64,000 nucleotides of DNA from Iphione sp. A-MEVVRFRX5 (GCA_976226885.1 OZ320321.1:64728001-64792000); one strand, 5' to 3'; shown: positions 20,355 through 56,710, numbered from the stretch's first letter. The notes: generated by a model from the sequence alone, not told the origin. A program made the numbers and translations.

Positions 20355-21205
20355 TGAAGACCCTCGCACCCTTCGTCCCTGCAGTCCACAGCCGGGCCAG
20401 CCTGGGACTGAACAAGCACTTTTCGGTTAAGATTGTTTTTTCCCGACTAAACTTGGTCTCTCCCCAGGGGTGGTCTCCCCTGCGTCTCTACTGTGCTTGC
20501 AAAGTCCCAGTAACCATTCTTAAAATCTAAACCCATTACGGCGCTAGCCTACATGTATTATCATAGGATCTGCAGAAGTCATTGTTCTCTATTCGATTTT
20601 GGGCAATACAAAATGGCAGACATGTTGTCACCTCGAAATTTTAAACAAAAGAATATTATGAAAATAGATAGTCTGTAGTAAACCATGGACCGTGCTTAAA
20701 CCTAAAGGCACACTCAGGCATGATACACGATGGTTCGGGTATAGTAGTTGGTGGAAGTGCTTGTAGTGACACCGCATCCTGGGAAGGCGTGCTAGCCAGG
20801 CTAGGTGAGCCAGCAGCATCTCCCAAATTGGTGGTAAAATATGGGAAGACCCTTGTGATGCAATATCATTTGACTGAGAAGGTCTCCATTGGTACCTATG
20901 TAGTGCAAATCTACTCCACCGCCCGTTACTACAGAAGCAACAGTAACAACACATATACAAGGTTAGTGCTGAACTAAAACCAACTATCACCCACATAATG
21001 GTGGACATTGACGAAGCTCCGGGTATTGGTAATACTGTAGAGGCACAGTAGTGTGGTACCCTGCAAACCCACCAGAGGGCCCCCAGCGATATAAAGAGCT
21101 GTCCCTGGCCTACGAGATCACAGTCCACAGTCTGCTGTGCCTCCCTCAACGTGCTTAAAAACCCACCCATCCACACCAAAGGAGAGAGAGGGGCATACTG
21201 ATGTA

Positions 21206-21360
21206 TGTGACAAATACTATTGTTTATTACATTTGGTTGCTTGTAAAAAAAAGTCTACTTTATTGTAGGGGTGTACCACGAAATCATAGTGCCACTGTCT
21301 GCCGGCTAACATTGTATGTATAAGATCCGCAGGCTTATGATTTGTGAGGTGTAGCGTACA
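21206..21360 (-). mobile_element. 3' LTR (155 bp) of the Gypsy element; polypurine tract at 21361-21369
   Basis: Minus strand: GAGGGGAGG immediately followed by TGTACG...AATAAA...AATAAA...TGTCACA (TG...CA ends), directly downstream of env. Confidence 0.7.
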
Positions 21361-21429
21361 CCTCCCCTCGGATGAAAGATATTTCATTATATGCCAAAAC
21401 TATTTGTGTATTAAACCTATTTTCTGTTA

Positions 21430-23047
21430 TTGTTTACTTTGTGTGGTGTGTTGCTGTTTTAAAAGGGATAATAGACTATTCTTTGTGACCTTATCATGAA
21501 GTATGTCGATGCATTGTACAATTCACTCAATGTGAGTTTTGGCAAAATCTGGTAGTGGTCGTAGAGCACCAATGTGGTTTGGAGCAGGAGATAACTCCAG
21601 GGTCCACACTAACAATTCAGTAACCAACAACTTGGAGGGTAGGATGAGTTGGTCCCGTTCTACTTCATACTCGCTCCATTGGAGGTAGTAGGTAGGGAGT
21701 GACATCTCATAACCCACTGCACCACACGCATTTGGCAGCTTCACCAATGTGAATGGAGGGGACACACTATGGTGAAAGACTCCCATTGATGCACTGGATT
21801 TGCATATTTAATGCCACAGGGGTGGTAACTACCCACTTACCTCTGTCTAGATATCTGGCTTGAGGCATGGTCACTTCATTCAGCACAATTCATTTACACA
21901 AGTCACGAACTTGTTTGACCTCCTGGCAGAAAATAGCCAGAAAACAATACAGATGCAAATTGAGTTAAAAAACTGGGGACAACACCAAACATGATCCATC
22001 TTGCATAGGATAGGCACCTAGGATAGGTACAGGAATGTTAATATCCTCATAGATGGTATAGAATGTGACTGAATCAATCAGTGGCACTATGATTAATGTT
22101 ATAATGGGTCCTTCAAAAATAACAGTAGTTGCCTTCAAAGCATTATAATAGCTCCAGATATCCTTGGGTGGACATGGCAGTCACAGCTGAGGTGGTAATT
22201 GGATTTTGATAGCAGACAATAGCTCCTGTAACTCCGTGGTGGGTATCACTTTGGGCATCAGGTGTCCTCCCAACAAGTGGTCAATGCAGGCTTCCAGATG
22301 CATGATAGACCTTTCCCAGGCATCCAGACCATACTCAAAGTGAGAAAAGCATCATTCTGCATTCAAAATCCCCTGAATGTGGCAGATCTCCTGGTTAGTG
22401 ACATTACTGATGGTATACAAAGCCATCCATAAATCATGTTCCAAGGCCTTAACAGAAACTACTAGATCATTAATATGAACTTGATTTTGTCTAGCATCAG
22501 CACATGTTTGGTTGATAACAGTCATCATGTCCCGCATTATAGTGCCCATTGCAGTCCCAGCAACAAGAACAAAGCCTTCAATAGCAGCAATAACTATTGC
22601 AGGAGTCTGTCGTCAACAAGTGTGGTTTCCTATCCTAAACAGGTCTACTCAATCCATCTGGTCAGCTTGGAATTGTCGAGCACATTCCTTAATACCTACT
22701 CTTGAAATGTTCTCTACATGGATGATACCCCGTCATATTCTGGCTTGTAAAGTCTCCACTCGGTTTAACTGTGACCCAGGCTACTGGCTCAGTATTAGGT
22801 TGGTTCCCTGTAATCTGATGAGCTGGAATAAGTTACATCGTCTGTAGAATCCCAAAACATGTGTCATTCAGCTGATGTGACAAACCATTCCTCACTTGCT
22901 TAAATCGGTCGTATTCTGACACAAGATCCAATCACCATGGGGAAAGCATAGACCCCACATCCAGATGTTTCTTGAAGATCATATTTTCGAGAGGGCCAAC
23001 TAGGGTCATCTGCAGGAGGTACAAGGCCACAGGTATGCCGACAAGTT
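21430..23047 (-). pseudogene. env: Envelope (baculovirus-F/errantivirus-like env) pseudogene of a Gypsy LTR retrotransposon
   Basis: Manual translation across stops and two frameshifts: LVGIPVALYLLQMTLVGPLENMIFKKH...; C*RQ-TPAIVIAAIEGFVLVAGTAMGT (cleavage site plus fusion peptide); heptad-like helix; LLGGHLMPKVIPTTELQELL..IKIQLP..LP...IWSYY...IIVPL...IPVP; YLDRGKWVVTT; PPFTLVKLPNAC...LPTYY. These motifs are typical of Gypsy env/F proteins. Confidence 0.8.
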
Positions 23048-23450
23048 CTGAAATAGAGAAAGACTGACATATTACTTAATATGCACTCTTCTCCATTGAA
23101 TCTTGCATAAAGTTCCAATTAAGATAAGGTCCCATAGTCCACTCTTAACATGACCTTTTCTGCATGGGATGCAGTTTCATAACTCAAGTTTGCTCCCTCT
23201 TTGCTATGGCCCAAGTTCTATAAGGTGGAGCCGGTGGGCCCACTGAGGCTCTGGGCTGCCTGCTATCTCATGTGGCGGCCTGAGACCTACTCCTTGTAGT
23301 AGGCCCATGAGGTGGAGATGTCAGCCTCCCACTCCTAGGAGCATCACGCTCACTTGGAAAAAGCTGTGAGGGCTCCCCACTACTTCTTGCCTCCATCAGC
23401 TGATCAGTCAGTGGGTTGACTGGAGCAACGGTCTCTCCTCCAGCCTTGCG

Positions 23451-24100
23451 TCACTGGTCCACACAGATAACTGGCTGGTTACGTGACACACCTAACCCTT
23501 TTTCCTGATCCCTGGCCACTGGATCAGGTCCTCTAATATCCTCAGGCCCATGCACCTGAACAGGTGGATTAATGTCCAAGACAGGGCCCTCCACCTCAAC
23601 CCATCCTTCTCCCTGCAGATCGGAGTTGTTCTCCTGCAGATCATGAAACTTGTGCTGCCATTCTCTCTCAAACAATTGGGCAAGGGGCATCTTATCTGAG
23701 GAAGAGAACTCATCAGAATCACCCGACAAACCCGACTCATCTTTGTCCAAATCGGAAAAAATACCATCTCTGGCTAAAGCAACATGCTGGCGTAGTTGTC
23801 CTTTGTCCTCCCTTGGCAACCTCCAGTCAAGGTTGGCTACACATAAACAATCTCTGTGGACTTTCATCAACTTCCTCAGCACCTGATCTTCTATGACAAA
23901 ATTAACCAGTGTCAATTGTTCCACAATCCAGCCATTAGGTTTGCCACCTTATATCTACCTTATGACTTTGTAGGGGATTCTGAACATACACAGGATCTCC
24001 CACAGCAATTTGCCGCAGCCTCCCTGGCAGGAGCCAAAGTGAGTGTGCAATTTGTGGTGACCCCTTAGCTTATATGAAGCGTAACTGCAGTAGTTGTTGG
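23451..24100 (-). pseudogene. Gypsy pol C-terminus (integrase tail, SH3-like) remnant
   Basis: IAVGDPVYVQNPLQSHKVDIRWQT*W/IVEQLTLVNFVIEDQVLRKLMKVHRDCLCVANLDW resembles the GDPVY...KW.PY.RI.EQ..PV.F integrase tail, followed by an acidic low-complexity tail. Confidence 0.7.
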
Positions 24101-24199
24101 CAGCTTCTGCAACTTCACGGTTGTGAACTTGATGCACACAATCGTTTGCATGAAGAGTTTGTTGTGGCTGATCCTGGTTATGGCACAAAAGGTTTAGAT

Positions 24200-25900
24200 G
24201 GTATGTAGCACCACACCAGTAGATTCGATTATTAGCCTTTACTCTTCACAGCTTAACTCTTTCATTCCACATAATCTAATAGGAGTAAATGGGCATTCAT
24301 TAATAAGGCAAAATAGAACAACTACATGCAGAATCAATAATATGACAAAGTCAGGTGGTGGTTTGGCTAATAATTTAAATCACTATTTTGATTATGATGA
24401 AGAGAAATATACCAGCATCTTAATTGTTGTGATGAGAATATTGAATTGCATTGTGTAGAAGTTAAGCGCGGTAACTTTAAGACTACTTTGATTAATATTT
24501 ATAGACCACCAAATGGATCAGCGACGTATTTTATTAACAAAATTGCTGATGCATTATCTAAGCTGAGACTAAGTCTCAATTAGCTACATCATCTGGTTAT
24601 TCAGTGTTTAATAAACGGCTGATCCCCAGTCGCTGGGAAGCTGGTCAAGGTAGAACCACTCCACAAAGGCGGTAATAAGTTGCCAGCTAACAACTAACGA
24701 CCAATATCACTATTACCCTTAATGTCAAAAATAGTGGAGAGAAAAGTATTTAATCAGCTGTAGTCACATCTAGAGAAGAACGCTCTACTTAGCAAGAGCT
24801 AGTTTGGTTTTAGACAGGGGGAAATACGCAAAATGCTGTCCACAAAGTTTTAAACTACCTTTACACAGAACTCAATCGCAGTCACTACAACTCTATACAC
24901 TATGCAAAGCATTTGACACCATCAATATTAACCTACTGTTATTTAAACTTGAGGATTACTACAACTTCTCTAAGTCCAGCATCCGGTGGTTTCGGTCATT
25001 TTTATTAAACAGACAGCAATATTGTAGTGTCAATGGAGTCTCCTCTCAAACGGCAGCTATCTCTTTTGATGTGCACCAAGGCTCAACCCTGAGTCCTCTC
25101 CTGTTTCCCATGTATAAAAATGATTTACCTGAAACCGTGCAATGTAAATACCACATTATTTGCAGACGATGCAATATTTAGTTGCAAAGACAAAATGAAC
25201 ATACTCTGTATAATCAAATGAAAAAGTGTTCTGAAGCCCTAGAAGATTGGTGTAAGGTAAATTGGCTAATTGTCAATACGAGTAAAACAAAAAGCATGTT
25301 GATTACTCCTACCAACAAAGATATAGATACCACCCAATTTCCATCATAATCATAAATGGTGGAGTTATCAGATATGTTCAAGGATATCCTGGAATCATAC
25401 TGGACAGTGACTTGACAATGAAAACATATGTTAATGGGGTGATAAAACAAATACTATCTCAGCTATATATATTAGCCAAGGTAAAATTTCAACTGACTGA
25501 GTTTGCATTTATTACAATATATAAGACATTAATGATGCCAAAAGTGGATTACTGTCTGGCCTTTACCACCTGCCCGTCCTTTGCAACTTTAGCAATACAT
25601 TTTACTAAATGTATAAAAGAAATCATAAAAATTCTGTCATTAAAAGTCTTCATATTTACTAAAATATACCAACAACTGTGACAAAAAATAGCTGTATTGC
25701 ATTTGCAGTTGCTAAAATAAGCAATAATAAGAAATTCTATTGCATTCTAAGGACCAAAAATATGGAATGGCCTGGATGCACTAATCAGAAGTATAACTGA
25801 CAGGGAGCAACTGCTGTCTACATGTAGAATGATCATTACTTCAATCGCTTTTAATCTTTTATCTCAATTATCCTACTGTTCAACCAGTGATGTAAATAAA
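24200..25900 (+). mobile_element. Degenerate, internally deleted CR1/L2-type LINE (APE + RT)
   Basis: APE motifs GHSLIRQNR...KSGGGLA and NIYRPPNG; RT motifs V.PLHKGG...N*RPISLLP.MSKI.ER, KAFDTIN, VHQGSTLSPLLF, FADD, YKTLMMPKVDYC; many stops and frameshifts. Confidence 0.9.
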
Positions 25901-28859: not shown

Positions 28860-29765
28860 ACTCAAAATGGACTAGTACAATAGTCATAGATGCAACTTAT
28901 ACGGAACATGCTCCTACTAGTCTTCAGATCATATCAGGTCCCTTTGTGTATTAAGCATGAGCTGGTCATAATGGAACACAGATACACCGCATATGCTTCG
29001 AGGACTTATGAGCAGTATTCCAAAAAGTATTATACAGCTCCATTTTGCCCATAGAAGCTTTACATTAACAACTTGTAGCTATACACTACCAATCTTTTAA
29101 ACATTCTATCTCCAGCGTTGTAATGACGCATTATTGATGACTTCCTCCGACAGCTTAATCATCTGTTTCCACAAATGGTTACAGGTGTGTCATCTCTACA
29201 TGTTTATTCATTTGTCACCACGTGTTATGCGATTGGTTAATTACGATGACTGTGTTACGTCATGCATATTCATGATGTGACTATTTTCAGCACTGCCTCT
29301 AATTAATGCTCTTGCATGAAGTCAAAAGCTACAAAGGGCACAGCATGACCTTGAAGACCGGACAATGGTGAATCGGCGTGTAAACCGGCCCCCAAAATGT
29401 CATATGATATTTGGCATAAAAGGATTTTCTAACCATTGACGTTTGGGAAAGATTCAGACGGCATGCATACGTAAGCAGCTCACATCTCACTGCGATGTGC
29501 AATGTGTGGCTGGGTATCTTTAATCAACAGAACTTCTGCAATCGCATTCGCTCGTGATTTAGCCGACCGGCCCAGGACGGGTTGCTGTTTACAATCAGAT
29601 TCGATTTCCTTTGACTTCTATAGTGAACGGACATCTGCTGTTATGCAGAAAATTGGGCTCTACAGGTAGTCTTCTCGCGTTCGGATGTAATTAAGAAAAA
29701 TCCGACTCTGTACATGTGAATGGCGCCTTACACTTTGTCACTGTATACAGTAGACAATGCTACCT

Positions 29766-30440
29766 GTTTGTTTTGGTGTTGGTGTGTCTCGTGCGTGGCA
29801 ACAGCATTTATAAGATGATCAGGCCTTGTGTACACAGGTCTAGTATTCACCTTATGAATGAAGAATTATAGAAGAAATGTAACATATAAAGGTCCTACAC
29901 ACAGGGAATGTCACATAGGCCTGGAGGTAGCTCCGTGATCAGAAGGAATGAGTGTTTATATGCAGGCATTCCTCACGTAGGACACCACCGGTTTGGTTTG
30001 GTGTTGGTGTGTCTCATGCGTGGCAACAGCATTTATAAGATGATCAGGCCTTGTGTACACAGGTCTAGTATTCACCTTATGAATGAAGAATTATAGAAGA
30101 AATGTAACATATAAAGGTCCTACACACAGGGAATGTCACATAGGCCTGGAGGTAGCTCCGTGATCAGAAGGAATGAGTGTTTATATGCAGGCATTCCTCA
30201 CGTAGGACACCACCGGTTTGGTTTGGTGTTGGTGTGTCTCATGCGTGGCAACAGCATTTATAAGATGATCAGGCCTTGTGTACACAGGTCTAGTATTCAC
30301 CTTATGAATGAAGAATTATAGAAGAAATGTAACATATACAGGTCCTACACACAGGGAAGGTCACGTAGGCCTGGAGGTAGCTCCGTGATCAGAAGGAATG
30401 AGTGTTTATATGCAGGCATTCCTCACGTAGGAGACCACCG
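29766..30440. repeat. 225-bp tandem triplication
   Basis: Units start at 29766, 29991 and 30216, with about 6 differences in total; identical ORFs at 29908 and 30133. Confidence 0.95.
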
Positions 30441-32503: not shown

Positions 32504-32829
32504 GGCCCCCCCCCAAAAAAATAGGTGGGTTTCTGGTAACGGCCAGCAAAAAACCTAGGTAGGGAAGGGGGTATTTAAAAAAAAAAATTTCCCACTTTCT
32601 TCCACTGGTTTTCAATAATAATAAAGACAATATGAATAATTTTGACCAATTTACATGAGTTTAACAGTTTTTTTGCTGAATTTCCATGGATTTTATTGAT
32701 TTTCTACTGAATTTAGCAAAAATATGCACCATGAAAACACATATCTAAGGAAATTCAGTCTTGGAAGCTCTTTAGGTTTTACTAGGTAGGGGTGGGTTAC
32801 CAGAAACACACCTATATTTTTTTTGGGCC
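32504..32829. mobile_element. TWA-flanked MITE copy (same orientation as 6447-6806)
   Basis: TAA|GGCCCCCC...aaaataggtgggtttctggtaac ... gttaccagaaacacacctatattttttttgggCC|TTA. Confidence 0.85.
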
Positions 32830-33252
32830 TTAAAGACCACCTGCCGTCCAACTCGCATGAGTGTAGTTTCACTTGGCAAGGTACAATGCTGAATTTAGCA
32901 AAAATATGCACCATGAAAACACATATCTAAGGAAATTCAGTCTTGGAAACTCTTTAGGTTTTACTAGGTAGGGGTGGGTTACCAGAAACACACCTATATT
33001 TCTTTTGGGCCTTAAAGACCACCTGCCGTCCAACTCGCATGAGTGTAGTTTCACTTGGCAAGGTACAATGCTGAATTTAGCAAAAATATGCACCATGAAA
33101 ACACATATCTAAGGAAATTCAGTCTTGGAAACTCTTTAGGTTTTACTAGGTAGGGGTGGGTTACCAGAAACACACCTATATTTTTTTTGGGCCTTAAAGA
33201 CCACCTGCCGTCCAACTCGCATGAGTGTAGTTTCACTTGGCAAGGTACAATG
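32707..33252. repeat. 182-bp tandem triplication spanning the MITE right end and flanking DNA
   Basis: Units start at 32707, 32889 and 33071; each contains the MITE right TIR plus ~60 bp of flank. Confidence 0.95.
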
Positions 33253-34149
33253 CTTTCGCGTCTACAGGAGATGCGCGGGACAAATGTGTCGAGATCATGA
33301 ACCCCCCAAAGCCCCCTTTGCAAATTAAGGCTGTGTTTTGGGGGGCCTTGATCCTTGACTCAGAGAGAGTAAAGGGAGAGACACACATATCAAAATAATG
33401 ATGGAACTTCGGAACGGCGAGGTGTAACCCAAACCGGCACCTGCATTCAAAACTGTTGCAAACAGGCAGTCTGAGACTCGCTGTTCACAAAAGCGACTTT
33501 GAGTAAAATAAAATTTATTTCTTAGAAATTTTAAAAGACACGATGACAATACTACGTGTGATAACTAAGAAGGCATAAAACATGAAAATAGCTGTAGTTG
33601 TCTACGTAAATATTATGCTGAGAATCATTGATATAAAGCTGGGTGGGCGGGTGGGTGGTAACGTATATGCTGCACCCATCTGTCCTGTCAGCGAGCAGAC
33701 TGGCCCGCCGCAGGGTCTCCTCTGCCGTTTGATCAATGAAGCCCCAAGAGGGCGCCACTCGTCATGCGGCGAGATTGAAGTTAGTGCGGTTCCATATTGG
33801 GGAGCCGGGGAACAACTGAGGTCACCGGGGTATACGCCGGACAAATCTCCTGCTGGAAAGAGTCGCCCTGAGTAGCTTTTAATGGAAGTCTGTGATGAGC
33901 TGCTGAGTGTAACCACTGTCTGAATAGAGAGGCGGTAAAGATCAGTGATCATTCATAGAACCGTGGCAAATTACCCACAAATGAACTTTTCAATGGAAAT
34001 CTCTTGGTTCTTTGACTACCATAGATATCATCTGCAGTATGACTCAGGGAAGTCTGGCTATTAAGTCGAAGCCCATTCATTCTCTGGATGTTGCGGGTGT
34101 CAGTTGGCCTGAGAAGGAGAGAAGCAGGGCATTTTACCCACACATTAAT

Positions 34150-36024: not shown

Positions 36025-38189
36025 AAATTCAGTAAAGTTCAAAGTTTCTTTCAAGAGAGAAATTTACAGACAGGCATGACGATATGATATGTAGATGGTG
36101 TGGGACTCACTACCCCATCATCTGAAAGTGAGGCCATTACCTAAGGACGAAATAAATAAATAAACAATAAAAATACTTTCTTGTCAAAGATAAACAAGGA
36201 AAATTGGAGGGTACTCGAATAGATCAATCATAAGACTCTATAACACTTACTCGGACTACGAAATGACCATCCCTTCCCTGCCAATCATCCCTGAATATAT
36301 AGACCAAAGGGTTCAGTGCAGTAGAAATTAGAACTTACCCATTAAATTGTGTATCAAACGTTGTATACTTTTGGATAGGACCTGCACACAATGAACTAGT
36401 TACTTTCTAGAACTTTATAAATATATGAAATACATGGATATAACATATTATCTGTAATTATTGGTGTATATATCTATCAATGTGCATAAAAGTGAACTAC
36501 TGTGGCCTACATCATGATCACACACGTTATTGTCATACTGGATGTATGAACAAGATATGTGATGTTTATGAGAAACACTAGATGATATTATGGATTGCCC
36601 CCTCCCCTGGTGTCCATCATAAGAACTACACACATCACCAGACCAAACGAAGAGGTCGATTTGAATTGGTTTGATGGGAGGTGAGGCAATTACTTTATTA
36701 TTTTATCTATTCATTTTCACAAGGGGTTAAATATTGAAATTGAAACTGAAATCATATCTGTGAGAGAATATACATGTATTGAATTAATGAATGACATAAA
36801 TATTGACTGGTCTGATGCTATAAAGTATGATTAACAATTTAATGATAACGGATCAGATAGCATATGTGACATAAAAATATAGTGCATTTGATATGATTAA
36901 GTATTTATATGCATGATGATGGGAATTGTGAATAAAAAATTATGTAATTGCTGGAGAAAGTTTGAAATTGTGCCTGACTTTGCAGATATGTTTTTACATC
37001 ATGTGCATGTATGTAAGGATATCTCATAAATAAAAAAATAACTTTAGAATGAAAGTGTTAACTCTGAAATGTAGCGGAAGAGTAATGCTTTAAATTGACA
37101 TACAACATGAATTGCTCAGACTAGACTGAGTACATCCATCATATGGGTGATTTGGGTATGTCCACTAACTTCAAACAGTAGATTTTCTATTGAGCTGTGC
37201 ATAGAAGATCCACAACGCCACCTGAATGTCATGTTTTAACAGAAACCTAATATATGAGTATCTTTTACCATAAGAACATTTGGAACATTTCTCTTTTGAA
37301 AAAAAATGAAGCATGCATATGGATATTTGAAGAAATTGTACCAGAACATGCAATTTGTTTGCATAAGCATCAACGGCATAAATACCGCTTTCAATCAAGG
37401 TGAAGGTCTTCAAGGAAATGTATCAAATGTCATTTCATGGAAATGAGCATGGAATCAAATAAAGAGACCTTCAGAGTACTGTGGTACATGGTTAACATAA
37501 TTTAAAAAGGGAACACTGAATCATTTGTGTCTATATTTATCAATCCATATGTACCACGCGTGAGTCGGCGGCGCGCTGCAGTCCCGATCCATTCTTCCTC
37601 TACATTGTAGTTGCTCCAACAGCGCCAATCCGTTGTAATATAAGTTAGATAAGGGTGAAGGACATTATATTTCTTATTAATTTGGGGGGAAATATATACT
37701 CATACCGTATACCTATATTTGCCAAGGTATGATGTGCCTATTGGCATTGCGTCATTGGTCCGGGGTGGTAAGGACAAGAACAGCATCTTCAGACCACCGC
37801 GGGCTGCAGTTCGTGGGTGTATCTCATTTCTCCCATTACAGAATAATTGTTTGTGTATATGGAGGTGATATGTGCGTATGAAAATACCATCATCAGTCAC
37901 TTGTGCATGATGTTACATAATAAATACCTTCATAATTACGGTTTGGAGGACGCATAGGACTGCAAGGTAAAACATACACACGTACATTTCCTGTTAAAGT
38001 TTGTGGCACGGTGAGAGAGTGCTTCCCAGGGTCTGCTATGAATCTCAGTATGAATTCAATGAAGGGGTAAGATGAGAAACAGGGTTTGTAGGGTCACCAT
38101 ATTGCTGTGTTCGGAGAAAGGGTCACTTACAATTCTGGAGCCAGGCCAAGCTTTGCTATATTGTAGAAGGGATGAGATATGTGTGGACA

Positions 38190-38555
38190 GTGGTGTAATA
38201 TTAGTGGACATTGGTGTGGTGCTAATGGACAATGATGTGATATTAGTGGACAATAGTGTGATACTAGAGGAAAATGGTGTGATATTAGAGGAAATTACTG
38301 TGATATTAGTGGACAATGGTGCGATATTAGTGGACAATGATGTGATATTGGCATACAGTGATGTGATATTAGTGGACAATGGTGTGAAGGTAGAGGACAA
38401 TAGTGAGATACTAGTGGAAAATGGTGTGACATTAGTAGAAGATGCTGTGATATTAGCAGATAATATTGTGATATTAGTAGACAATGGTGTGATATTAGTG
38501 GACAATGGTGTGATATTAGTGGGCAAGATGTGATACTAGTAGATAATGGTGTGAA
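38190..38555. repeat. 21-bp minisatellite (gtgatattagtggacaatggt), ~17 copies
   Basis: Direct inspection; the 7-residue periodic ORFs here are a by-product. Confidence 0.95.
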
Positions 38556-38704
38556 TACATCTGTTGCAAGAGCAGTGCAACTAAGGCTTTGGGTACCCCG
38601 ATAGGATGCCATTAGAATATAGAAAGAAATCCTTGAAGCCTATGGCTTTTCTTTGACCTAAGTCACAGTTCAAACCTTAGATTCATTGATGTAGGCTGAC
38701 ATAC

Positions 38705-40820: not shown

Positions 40821-43568
40821 TGTAAATGACTGGAGCATATCAAGACCTAAGAGCATATCAAGACCTATCAAGAATTTTAACTCTGATTTGGAGTTCTCAC
40901 ACTCCTGTCGTGATAATCGGTGCACTGCCCCTAGAAATGGTTGTTCTCCGCTAGTTTTGAATTCTTGGACCATTTAAGGTTAGAGATTTATAAGATAATG
41001 TGTCATTTGTTTAACAAAAATCAAAATGGTGGTTCCTTAGCAACTCGGATTCATAAGTTTGGAAGGATAATTCGATTAACATACAGACAGAAATGATTCA
41101 TTAATGCTACATAAATATAGGAAAATAGTAATAAACATAATTTGGGCATCTTATACATACAAATCTTTTCCAAAATTCATTATAGCATCTATATGTTTTC
41201 GTGTCAACAAAAATAAGAGCTCAAAACTAAACTGGTGCCCTTTCCTCAGTTTTATTTGAATAATTATACATAGTCAGAGAGTGGATACCAGTCTAACTCT
41301 TGCACCAACATGAATTGGGGAGAGGATTTTTTTGGCCAATGAAATTCAAGGTATGATAAGTAAACATCCAAAATGGCAGAGGAAGACAGCTTTTTCATTT
41401 AAAACCGAAAAGGATGCAGCTTAAATTGGTAAAATTTCTTCATATTTCATCCATTTCATTAAATTATCATTGTCAAAACAGTGTTGAAGTTTAGACTCCA
41501 CACTTTTTGTTTTTGAGTCTAGACTTAAACCCTTTGGTGAAAACCAATTTTTTTTATGACCAATTATCATCATGTGAAGATCAGGCCATTTCAGTTCCAA
41601 GAATCTTTTTATAGTAACCTGTCGTTGTAACAAGTATTCTTCAGGTGATATTTTAAGTCGGCGGTGAACATCACATAGTCACATGGTTACATGTCATTCC
41701 TCCATGCATGATACAGTACAATCACACAAACATACACAGAAACCCCACTGGTGCAAATAGCCGGAAGTGTACACAAAATACAAACACAAAATAGTACTTA
41801 GACACTGGACATGACCAGACATGAGTGACAAACGCATACACTGACATGTTTCGCTTTTGCTGACTTATAATATTGATGTACGTGGTATGTACTAAACATG
41901 AATAGTAAAAAAAACACATATTAATGTATGTGATATGTACTATGCATGAATTACAAACACACTCACCAGATAGCAGACTTGACCTGTTCTATACATTCAC
42001 TGACAAATTTGGAATGCACTATGCATAAATTACAAGCATACCTGTTTGTTGAAGGCATATGCTATGAAGCATGCATAAACAAACACAAAGACACACACTG
42101 ACACGCAGAGCAATTACTATACATGAATTATAAATACACCTACTGGCACACATTATATGTACTAGATATTAATTACAAAAAGACGCAGACACACTTACAC
42201 AAATAGCATTTACTATGCATCAATTACAAAACCTTGATGATACTTACATAGGTTGAATATATTCTGAATACATATAGTTTTGCAATTTATTCATGTGAGA
42301 GACTTAGAGACGGACTTAGAACAGAACCTCTATTATGGTGGCTACTGAAGCTTTGGCAATGCAGCATAATATTTGACCTTGGGCACCAAGTAAAAAAAGT
42401 ATTATAAACTTCTGTGCATGATGCAAGTTGTATTCTGACAGCTCCTTCCTTCTTGAAGGCTGAGGGAGCAGGGCTCTTGCATCAATACTGAAATGTTAGA
42501 ATATGTTATTCATACTTTAAAAACAGACGAACCTATTAACATAGATTTTAAGGAGGAAATGTACGCATGGAATGGGACGCTTAATTATACGTCGTCTGCT
42601 TTCCTACTTGTTTTGCGTATACTGAACCATAAAGTTAGGAGAGAAGTAATTTCATTGGCTTTTGCCTATCAAGTGACTGACTATTGGATTCGTTGATTTT
42701 TGCATTGTAAATTTGATCTTTCTGTTTCATTGTGAAAGGTACACCGAACTATCATCGTGTGGTCGGAATTTAATACTCTGTGGCTCACATGATTATTCTA
42801 TTATGAAGTATTAATTGTAAACTTTTGAGCCCAGCTGTCATCTCGGAGAGTATTATTTCAGTTTACACATGTAACATATAGCCAGGTAACCTAAGGGGAT
42901 GGTTTAAATGTCAATTAACAGATTTGCAGGGGTTACCGTGCAGATTCCTCTCTTCTTCCAGGCCCGTAGGCAGGAATGTTTGTCGGGTATCTGGTTTTTG
43001 AGATATCACGATTGCAACAAACAAGGATGAAGACAGAGCTGTCTGAAACAGATTCTAGGAGCACGTTTTGGGATATCTCAGTGAAAATTGTAACACAGTA
43101 ATTGTAATGGCAATGCTAAAAGGCTGAAAAACCTGCCGAATGTAATATAGGATAACATTAGAAAATGGCAAAGGAAACTGTGTATGTATAGTGAAAAGTT
43201 ATAAGGATGAAGTTTAAGCCTTAGAGTGGAGTAAAAGTGCCCATTCCAAAATTTTTCCGGTAATTGTCTCTACACAGTTAGTGTATGTGACGATGCTCTT
43301 CTGCGTGTGTGGTATTACATTATTTGTGTAACTCCTATCTTATATGTACCCAATAATGAATGCGTGCTAGATTTTAAGTCTAAACGACATTGTTTCAGAA
43401 TAGTTATCTACTAGCTCTTGTCTCGCTGACACCTGATGAATTGCACAATGAGTTTCAAATATTTTGATAAACGTGTTTACGTCAAAGAGGACAGGGGTAC
43501 ACATGACTAGAAAGAAAAGGTGATACAGGACAGGAGGAAAATAATGAGAAAAAATGCTCAAAGGGAAC

Positions 43569-43960
43569 GGAGGAGAAATGATGATGATTATAATAAAAAT
43601 GATAAAATATTAATTTTTATTCCTACCAATCATCCTGTTGGGACGTTTCGAATAGCTTGGAATACATTCCATAATAGTTTCCTGAAATCATTTTTTTCAT
43701 TTATATTCCTACATATGGGATCAAAGGAGTTGCACGTGTCAGTGTTGGTTGTTTCTCTGGCGAATGGAGGAGAAATGATGATGATAATAATAAAAATGAT
43801 AAAATATTAATTTTTATTCCTACCAATCATCCTGTTGGGACGTTTCAAATAGCTTGGAATACATTCCATAATAGTTTCCTGAAATCATTTTTTTCGTTTA
43901 TATTCCTACATATGGGATCAAAGGAGTTGCACATGTCAGTGTTGGTCGTTTCTCTGGCGA
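43569..43960. repeat. 197-bp tandem duplication
   Basis: Units start at 43569 and 43766, with only a few substitutions. Confidence 0.95.
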
Positions 43961-54385: not shown

Positions 54386-56710
54386 CTGTGAGCACATGTG
54401 GGTAGGATAATTGCACAAAGCTGTGCAAGCAAGAGTCAGCTTACGAAGGAGAGAGGGTTCTTTCATGTATCAAGGATGGATAACCATGATGAGGCTTCAG
54501 GGCAATGAACCAATCATGAAAATGCAGGAGAATGTTAGGATAAAGTCATATTGATATGAACACTGTAAGAATAATGTCATATTGTCATTACACTAGTGTT
54601 ACACATTCTGCTAGCTAGCCTGAATGAAGTATCTGAGCAGAGTATCATGTTACGTTACCATTTGATCAGAAAATTCTCAAGTACAGTTACAGTAGATACT
54701 GTATTTTATTGACAATGTTCAGGGACCTTGCTTCTCCAACAGGAACGCAGCTTAAAAGCTCCATGTACGTATACCTTCTAAATTGTAAGGTACTCGGATA
54801 ATAAAAATGTACTTCTGATATGTCGACCTCACTACTGATGAGATATATGTGATATTTTGCATGAATGACAGATGCCTCCCACCAGATACATATTCGTGCT
54901 GTTCTCATAAATACAAATATGTATTTATGAGAACAGTGCTGTTTTCTTATATAGATATGTATATGACAGCAGCACTGGCTCTGGTTTCTGTTGATTGCTG
55001 ACAGAAGGGGGAAAATTATTGTCCAACATTGTGTATTTGATTGCATCCACCAGCTGGGAGCACCAATGGTCGTATTCTGTACAGATAGTCTGTTAATGCA
55101 TGGCCCGAGTGTCATAAGAAAATTGAAATAATATTTCTACTTCACACTTCTATACAAAGAATACCTTTTCAACTTAGACGAAGACATGTTTCCCACTCAA
55201 CATTTCCGCTCGTTCCGTTCGCTTTGTTCATGTTGCTTAGTTGCAGGATGCTTTGATGGCAGACTGTATACCGCGAAGAAGAACTTCTACTAATAATAAT
55301 TCCTTAAGGGTATTCATTACGGTACAGAGATCAAACAAAAGGCCACCTCTATATCATACATCAATTGCACTGGAACTCATGGCACGGATGCCATTATAAA
55401 CCTGTGAGACAAACAGTTCTTACAAGGTTTACAATATTTTGTCTGAAAGCTCAGATGCAACCTAACTCAACTTGGGGCAGCTCAACGAGGACGGCAATGT
55501 AGAAATTTACAAATAAAATTGATCAAATTAACTTTGATATCATCACAGAGCAATATTTGTCGGTAACAATGCTAACTACTAGTACACGATATACACGTCT
55601 GATTTAAATCAACCTTAGATAGCAAGGGAATCCTCTGTGTATTAATGCACGACATATGGCTTTGCCATATAGAGGAGGCTTTGTGGAGTTGTGTGGAGCT
55701 AAATTTCAAAACTACTTTTTTAAAGGAAAGCTGACAATATTGTGGGTTATAGTGACCAGTGTTTCCTTGTTTGTGTGGGCTCAGAGTTCTTTATTTCCAG
55801 TAACCGGACCTACCATGCATTAAGTTAATTGTAAGTTTATATTTTTTCCTGTTTTTTTTAATAACCTTCAGATGATTAATGATAGAAACATACTAGCTTT
55901 CATTTGACAAAAGTTTTAAAATCTAACCAGTATAAGTAACTGTTGTAGCTCAAAATGCAAACACCAGGAGTCAGGTTTGAGTCAGCTTTTATTCTTCAGC
56001 GAAAGTCAGTATACAGCAACCATCATCTCAGTAGCAACCGGGATGAGTCCGACTGTTCACCGCGGACCGCCAACCTTATATACCAGAGTGACCGGATTTG
56101 GTCATTTGTCAGATGTCAAACATACAATGGGTCGTTAAGCTTTTACATTCTTGACATCACTAACACCCCGCATCCAGGGTCACGCCTGAGCATTGTTTAT
56201 GCCTTATCTTGTTTGTCACGCCTCTGCGCCGTGTGAAACAAGTACTACAATACTGTGTGAACCAAGGAGACTTTTAATGTTCATGGATTCAATTACCATT
56301 ATCGCTGATACCATGAAGAATTGCGAAGTACGCAAAAGAATACTTCCTGCATGTAACAAACAAAATTTTTGTCCGCATCGTTACCTTACTCCGCAAGCGG
56401 CCTTACTAACAATTCTTATAACTATACACTTTACAGTTGCATTATTTCATTAGCCCTTGATGCACAATCATTATGAACTGTTTTTAATACAATGTTAGAT
56501 CCCTTTATTTTGTTTATTTCGTCAGACAATCGAGATGTTCCAACACATTATCATCATCATATTCGTAACTGTGTTACACTGTACAATACACACCTGCTGC
56601 TTTCAGGATCCTTTAACATTGAAGAAAAGAAAAATAAAAGAAGTGAATTACCACCCAACCTTTTATTTTATCTGCTTGTTACCTGAAACACAGAACTATT
56701 TTTTAGGCCT

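Follow-up and report, generated by a model that had tools for sequence, protein, structure and literature searches.

An internally deleted, env-bearing Ty3/gypsy relic from a probable annelid genome, and its family with a predicted spliced env and an orphan reading frame upstream of gag

The stretch of DNA analysed here, referred to as the window, comprises 64,000 nucleotides of Iphione sp. A-MEVVRFRX5 (GCA_976226885.1 OZ320321.1:64728001-64792000). From 24257 to 20686, on its minus strand, lies the relic of a retrotransposon with long terminal repeats (LTRs). It consists of the end of a 5' LTR, a degenerate primer binding site (PBS), the beginning of an open reading frame (ORF) that we call ORF0, the tail of the integrase and an envelope gene (env) that is split by a nested insertion (Table 1). 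Taken together with its paralogues, this stretch is very probably a dead copy, with an internal deletion, from an abundant family of Ty3/gypsy elements in a host that is probably an annelid. The family carries the gene for a class I, F-type Env glycoprotein, likely expressed from a spliced message, and its members likely passed from cell to cell as enveloped particles.

Table 1. Parts of the relic and the nested insertion, in window positions
Feature	Position	Strand	Basis
3' end (R/U5) of the 5' LTR, ending ...TGCTACA, cut upstream by a fragment of a long interspersed nuclear element (LINE)	24204..24257	-	blastn to LTR ends and leaders of paralogues
Degenerate PBS, 15/18 nt matching the family tRNA-His(GTG) PBS	24171..24188	-	
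ORF0 5' remnant, ~48 codons	24006..24151	-	blastn to leaders in 5/20 loci; tblastn of ORF0 aa 12-38 at 24116-24036, E 0.001
Junction of the ~5-kb internal deletion	24003..24006	-	microhomology on both sides, not GT-AG
C-terminal tail of the integrase, then the acidic low-complexity extension of Pol; one frame change, four stops	23120..24003	-	tblastn to paralogues
Predicted env splice acceptor, polypyrimidine tract and CAG, phase 1	23048..23063	-	paralogue comparison
Env 5' part with the h-region of the signal, F2, a fusion peptide at ~22612-22550, a heptad repeat and Cys-rich domains; ten stops, two frame changes, two in-frame-sized gaps	21476..23047	-	
Nested insertion, attributed to a solo A+B unit from the terminal repeats of a Ngaro-like tyrosine-recombinase retrotransposon	21021..21475	+	
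Rest of env: transmembrane helix with Cys cluster at 21002-20931, then the cytoplasmic tail with a frame change near 20836; cut off at ~20686	20686..21020	-	

By tblastn, the env of the window corresponds to amino acids (aa) 5-709 of a natural 738-aa paralogue and is found at 23060-20686. It is broken by ten in-frame stops, the frame changes near 22760, 21778 and 20836, and two gaps, one of 26 and one of 31 codons, open against the paralogue; its furin site is degenerate. An initial annotation had already described a broken env frame, but gave it about 540 codons ending at 21430, and the transmembrane helix with its Cys cluster falls outside the coordinates it proposed. The integrase tail and the acidic tail that it saw are indeed present, and a deletion of ~140 bp is located at 23115-23098 (minus strand). 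Regarding the 5' side, gag and reverse transcriptase (RT) are absent as annotated, but the 5' LTR is not entirely so: its last ~50 bp (24257-24204), the PBS (24188-24171) and the leader persist. The internal deletion removed the rest of ORF0, the mini-exon described below, gag, protease, RT, RNase H and the integrase core; splicing as the origin of its junction was ruled out by the microhomology and the lack of GT-AG. At the other end, no family 3' region, polypurine tract (PPT) or 3' LTR adjoins ~20686, where homology stops. The LINE reported nearby was recovered as a LINE-type RT on the plus strand at 24774-25178 (PF00078, E 3.9e-6), within a decayed fragment of such an RT at 24260-25900 (plus strand) that abuts the truncated 5' LTR.

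At the level of sequence, alignment to the paralogues demonstrates the loss of ~5 kb of the interior and of the 3' end, the decay and the nested insertion. The best explanation of this history would be that the copy inserted in an old wave, lost these parts and decayed, and that the solo repeat of a tyrosine-recombinase (YR) retrotransposon landed inside its env. We place the copy in an old wave because LTR pairs of the copies closer to it are only 79-93% identical (a pair was found in three copies).

The nested insertion bears directly on how the 3' end is read. In the initial annotation, env ended near 21430 and was followed by a PPT and a 155-bp 3' LTR of the form TG...CA. The letters are there, a purine run and then TG...CA, and the segment is repeated in the genome (45 matches), often in close pairs. 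They lie, however, inside the insert, and such an anatomy is scarcely credible. Firstly, the homology shared by the repeats begins ~100 bp upstream of the supposed PPT, these repeats show neither TG..CA ends nor target site duplications (TSDs), and the purine run is not conserved among them. Secondly, env aa 597 ends at 21469 and the frame resumes at 21026 on the other side of the 455-bp insert, while paralogues are contiguous across the site in five of 20 older loci and two of 11 young ones, which refutes the annotated end. Thirdly, the 155-bp segment does not match the family LTR, which is ~550 bp long and unrelated, and in the copies examined it was never found as paired LTRs around an env element, a check that the initial annotation had itself put forward. 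As a general caution, a purine run with TG..CA makes no LTR until paralogues have been compared.

The other half of the insert repeat recurs ~4.1 kb away. In all four loci fetched, the pattern is A1 - ORFs - B1 - A2 - B2, with repeats 98-99.5% identical, and it is these repeats that form the close pairs. The ORFs between them match RVT_1 (E 5.5e-14), RT_RNaseH (2.6e-4) and Phage_integrase (4.6e-6; 27.0 bits with a cut-off of 27.1), next to a gag-like ORF. Because split direct repeats surround ORFs for RT, RNase H and a tyrosine recombinase, we attribute the insert, from its sequence, to a solo A+B unit of a Ngaro/PAT-like YR retrotransposon, in plus orientation and not part of the gypsy element. 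Split direct repeats define the Ngaro- and PAT-like elements as described in PMC9210276, which likewise carry A1...B1-A2-B2 around gag-like, RT/RNase H and YR ORFs and have no TG..CA and no clear TSD. The present case differs in that the window has a solo A+B unit only and that the scanned ORFs gave no methyltransferase-like match. Two other identities of the insert were rejected: a terminal-repeat retrotransposon in miniature (it lacks TG..CA and a TSD, and is part of YR elements of 4.5 kb) and a ribozyme (no Rfam match on six loci, fold z -0.86). This young 4.5-kb YR family also leaves solo A+B and B-A-B units, and its A repeat together with the spacer makes a long stem, in which copies differ by a compensatory change.

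The layout of the gypsy family was read from natural paralogues in the same genome and not from the window copy. The window region is multicopy, with 69 DNA matches at 66-84% identity; the protein search with an env part gave 116 scored matches of 6376 candidates, and that with ORF0 gave 150 scored of 1499. The order in the family is LTR - tRNA-His PBS - ORF0 - mini-exon - gag - pol - env - ~1.2-kb 3' region - PPT - LTR. Gag matches zf-CCHC and, weakly, Retrotrans_gag in Pfam. In pol, the Pfam order RVP, RVT_1, RT_RNaseH, Integrase_H2C2 and rve (protease, RT, RNase H, integrase) fits Ty3/gypsy (Metaviridae), of which the window copy retains the integrase tail only. In the structure-database search the best PDB match of the RT was Ty3 (E 9e-92), followed by caulimoviral-type (3e-57) and retroviral (5e-34) entries, a ranking by similarity. 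The search for intact copies, paired LTRs and TSDs suggested by the initial annotation succeeded for the real LTR of the family: it is 543-557 bp long, of the form TG...CA, and 95.8-99.5% identical within the pair in eight of the nine copies with both flanks. A purine tract lies immediately 5' of the 3' LTR, and 4-bp TSDs flank all seven copies examined. Complementarity of the PBS to host tRNAs gave 13 pattern matches against none in the control, and the four that were checked are all tRNA-His(GTG). The env frame is stop-free over at least 700 aa in 11 of the 116 scored matches, with one further split match excluded from this count. In the 3' region after env, no conserved ORF was consistent among seven copies.

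Some further observations concern this layout. In the young lineage L083-L092, the gag ATG lies ~1060-1075 nt past the 5' LTR, behind at least eight upstream ATGs, and just before gag an ATG-TAA overlaps a strong donor-like site (TAT followed by GTAAGT) in six of eight copies. Old and young copies alike retain the ~200-aa acidic, low-complexity extension of Pol after the integrase. Another piece of the family LTR, separate from the relic (66-77% identity, ending ...GCTACA, with no PBS behind) is present at 55943-56446 of the window on the minus strand, and is probably an old solo LTR.

In the case of Env, the identity had to be taken from the paralogues, because the window's own broken pieces give no Pfam match (none of six X-read pieces). 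The natural 738-aa paralogue matches Baculo_F (PF12259; E 1.1e-5, 24.7 bits, cut-off 24.1). Of the two profiles that the initial annotation had named, this one was therefore found by way of the paralogue, while PF07253 (Gypsy env) was matched neither by the paralogue nor by the window pieces in Pfam. A second env copy scores 23.9, just below the cut-off for Baculo_F. An index-free search recovered 1197 public relatives of the paralogue at E 0.001 among 1.84 billion representatives, unlike a word-indexed search, which gave none at that threshold; Baculo_F was passed by 11 of the 18 top relatives scanned. A profile of 132 env rows matches the PDB 'fusion protein' entries 9w4c and 9w4d (E 5e-28 and 7e-27), and a single-protein PDB search with a 354-aa env part gave no match. 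The model of the ectodomain (pLDDT 78, pTM 0.62; a single-sequence fold with pLDDT 35 was discarded) matches in Foldseek the F proteins of RSV, NDV and hPIV3 (respiratory syncytial, Newcastle disease and human parainfluenza 3 viruses; E 7.5e-9 to 6e-8), baculovirus F (2e-19) and chuvirus-type glycoproteins. Weighing against an F-type assignment are the marginal Baculo_F score, the failures in Pfam just mentioned and the low TM-scores of the Foldseek matches (0.3-0.5). Altogether, the Baculo_F match, the PDB profile and the structure model bear out what the initial annotation had proposed, namely an env-bearing Ty3/gypsy relic with an F-type env.

Motif and hydropathy scans of the natural paralogue recovered the signal, furin site, fusion peptide and transmembrane anchor: RARR at aa 157 precedes a hydrophobic fusion peptide, six sequons are present, and a transmembrane helix at 609 is followed by a Cys cluster, with hydrophobic peaks at aa 1-30, 161 and 609. 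Cleavage of Env would take place at the R-x-R-R furin site that precedes the fusion peptide, and the C-terminal helix would serve as its anchor. Env paralogues also have a Ser/Pro-rich cytoplasmic tail of ~110 aa (aa ~630-738), which old as well as young copies retain. An uncharacterised abalone herpesvirus protein (A0A145VUZ2, E 3e-17) ranked among the best structural matches of the model, hinting at F-like genes that lophotrochozoan herpesviruses and these elements have in common.

For the selection tests, the samples were the eight top env hits and, for ORF0, 30 top hits plus 20 hand-picked divergent hits with few stops. Among 28 pairs of env copies, mismatch was 4-51% at third and 0.3-0.9% at second codon positions, and the window env compared with older copies (eight pairs) gave a ratio of nonsynonymous to synonymous substitution rates (dN/dS) of 0.16. 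Judged by these substitution patterns, strong purifying selection acted on env in those lineages that spread; against this it must be counted that the copies were picked by protein similarity, which biases dN downwards. Between the young lineages L072-L082 and L083-L092, third-position divergence in env reaches ~50%, seemingly above that of pol (88% overall identity in the same kind of pair), a gap that may reflect exchange of env between lineages.

The manner in which env is expressed can be approached through its start, which was anchored in 21 of 32 loci. The acceptor, TCTTTCTCTATTTCAG, with its AG at 23049-23048, opens into a hydrophobic stretch, as the initial annotation had stated. Its pyrimidine tract and CAG are kept in 16 of the 21 anchored copies, 14 of them at exactly the window position and in phase 1. 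In-frame stops lie just 5' of it, and the hydrophobic stretch behind varies freely, without a fixed Met. The partner donor would be found upstream of gag: ~25 nt past the ORF0 stop, 45 of 50 copies have a mini-exon made of an ATG, 3-5 mostly basic codons and a phase-1 donor, with (A/G)AG before and GT(G/A)AG after the cut. Four of the 50 copies are without it and one is matched at another site; the length variants (4-6 codons) differ by whole codons. The donor, AAG before GTGAGC, lies about 720 nt past the ATG of ORF0. We infer from this arrangement that splicing joins the mini-exon to the env acceptor in phase 1, a predicted junction by which the 4-6 basic codons would provide the ATG and the charged N-terminal end of the signal peptide. 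The spliced-type start proposed in the initial annotation is consistent with this conserved, phase-matched pair. A donor just before gag, which would make a start codon split after AT, was rejected: it is in the wrong phase for env and several acceptors begin with A.

Env could instead come from an unspliced message that begins at an internal promoter, with translation from a Met within the hydrophobic stretch; the acceptor and mini-exon would then serve something else. Young copies do carry a Met five codons past the acceptor, some Met is found within the first 14 codons in nine of the 14 in-phase copies, so that an internal start is possible for young copies, and a gap between ORFs exists upstream of env. 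The acceptor AG is also lost in five of the 21 anchored copies and shifted by an indel in two more. Even so, the Met is missing in five of the 14 in-phase copies and wanders in the remaining ones, and its use would leave a very short signal. Subfamilies whose proteins are ~50% identical share a fixed acceptor position and phase, 45 of 50 copies retain, as described, a donor that matches in phase and brings an ATG, and the same splice scheme is proven for the ZAM and Beagle subclades of Drosophila, where splicing supplies the env start (PMC12992720). An unspliced env is thus distinctly unlikely.

With a spliced F-type Env, family members would pass between cells as enveloped particles. Env might alternatively be kept for a role inside the cell or for fusion with neighbouring cells, without free infectious particles, and transmission by env is called unproven outside Drosophila in PMC13524379. 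The signal, furin site, fusion peptide and anchor are nevertheless all under strong purifying selection in recently inserted lineages, which makes this role improbable, if worth keeping in sight, and leaves passage as particles the preferred reading.

Upstream of gag, the family carries ORF0, of ~225 codons, whose ATG lies ~50 nt past the LTR. In a frame-blind alignment of 17 open copies, mismatch by codon position was 0.17/0.16/0.32, and the ORF0 frame has 2.4 stops per 200 codons compared to 3.5-8.3 in the other five frames. Pairwise dN/dS among the 50 copies was 0.41 in the closest pairs and 0.24-0.31 in divergent bins; for comparison, gag gave 0.26 and 0.03-0.11. On these grounds ORF0 is, by sequence comparison, under purifying selection with a dN/dS of ~0.25-0.3. 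Two points weigh against this: only 19 of 47 copies are open for at least 200 aa, and the copies were selected by similarity to ORF0, favouring the result.

A leader reading of this region also has to be weighed, in which ORF0 would be a structured signal for packaging or translation, or else would belong to Gag as a matrix-like N-terminal part, attached through recoding or splicing. ORF0 directly follows the PBS, where packaging signals lie, no homologue was recovered outside this genome, its dN/dS is 3-8 times that of gag, and gag would have to be translated from behind at least eight upstream ATGs. The codon periodicity and the scarcity of stops in its own frame point to a coding sequence, though, the positions of ATG and stop are conserved across copies 49-100% identical, and a stop and ~350 nt with more stops lie between ORF0 and gag. 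We therefore consider a leader or Gag part unlikely and a separate protein the better account of ORF0.

Regarding the function of this protein, ORF0 gave no Pfam family, no homologue by single-protein or alignment search, in which only near lengths were covered, and no PDB match under E 0.2. Conservation is highest over the first ~60 residues, among them an Arg-rich stretch. At aa 88, 33 of 50 copies have PLDLS and nine have PLNLS, a putative motif of the CtBP-binding kind; the conservation of this segment within ORF0 ranks only 42 of 221, which weighs against this reading. By the Arg-rich stretch, the presumed motif and analogy with sORF1 of the Drosophila MDG1 group, ORF0 is most likely an accessory protein, nuclear and regulatory. 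Oncoproteins of animal DNA viruses bind CtBP through such a motif. A more speculative proposal, to which we give rather low credence, is a 'complex' invertebrate endogenous retrovirus: a recently active annelid lineage with gag, pol and spliced F-type env whose orphan, Arg-rich protein from upstream of gag would be a nuclear accessory regulator, binding the host co-repressor CtBP via PLDLS/PLNLS and so controlling the expression of the element or blunting host silencing. In the literature searched, where subscription journals are sparsely covered, no report was found of animal gypsy elements that have both an env and an accessory ORF upstream of gag, nor of PLDLS/CtBP in retrotransposons.

The host was considered through its mitochondrial genes. 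Eleven protein genes lie on one strand, read with table 5, in the order cytb-atp6-nad5-nad4L-nad4-nad1-nad3-nad2-cox1-cox2-cox3, which presumably fits the common annelid pattern. The host is thus probably an annelid, in agreement with the non-insect invertebrate of the initial annotation. Mitochondrial genes on one strand are described as usual in annelids in PMC7682095. Apart from these, a small decayed nuclear copy of mitochondrial cox1 was seen at G000:C4:89642397-89642808. The window itself also contains tandem arrays at 29762-30436 (225 bp), 32707-33254 (182 bp), 43565-43958 (197 bp) and 38129-38569 (21 bp), and several dispersed repeats resembling miniature inverted-repeat transposable elements.

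What remains at this locus is a dead relic. Its family is large and was recently active, with LTR pairs up to 99.5% identical. Spliced env and particle formation of non-insect errantiviruses could hence be tested in one animal, on a precise predicted junction. The presence of a mini-exon like that of ZAM in so distant a lineage suggests an old or a repeated origin of this kind of env start. Together with env, an orphan accessory ORF under selection would give a four-gene element resembling complex retroviruses.

Gypsy elements with F-type env in annelids are already published, and the class is known: Chary and Hayashi (eLife 2026, PMC13524379) report 1512 intact env-F and env-gB elements across metazoans, with annelid clades A5-A7, so that the statement in the initial annotation that such elements are poorly characterised outside insects does not hold. 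With these 'ancient errantiviruses' the present family shares the Ty3/gypsy pol, the order gag-pol-env, an F-type env with furin site, fusion peptide and anchor, multiple copies, recent insertions and an annelid-like host, and its third ORF after pol is an F-type glycoprotein, in the sense in which that work uses 'errantivirus'. It differs from them in that the main text of PMC13524379 describes no splicing and no accessory or upstream-of-gag ORFs; its supplementary tables may list the present family. What the family would add to the class, as read from its sequence, is the predicted ZAM-like mini-exon and the selected orphan ORF upstream of gag.

In the case of the insect endogenous retroviruses ZAM and Beagle (PMC12992720), the env start is of the mini-exon type that is predicted here, but those elements have insect hosts and proven junctions and infectivity, and the host of the present family is non-insect; the family has a tRNA-His PBS and a predicted junction, and carries an extra 225-aa ORF before the mini-exon. 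The PBS of insect errantiviruses is mostly Ser/Lys/Leu (PMC13524379), so that the His PBS and the annelid-like mitochondrial layout set the family apart from ZAM, gypsy and Idefix. The nearest precedent of ORF0 is sORF1 of the Drosophila MDG1 group (bioRxiv 10.1101/2025.03.14.642691), likened here by description: it is nuclear, has its own short message and lies upstream of gag, but is ~110 aa long compared to ~225 aa, and belongs to elements without env that use a FAST-like sORF2. The ORF0 of rice Retrosat2 (PMC3485330) likewise adds an ORF of unknown function to an LTR retrotransposon, although it comes from a plant element with 3-kb LTRs and, in the abstract, no env, with no relation shown to the family described here.

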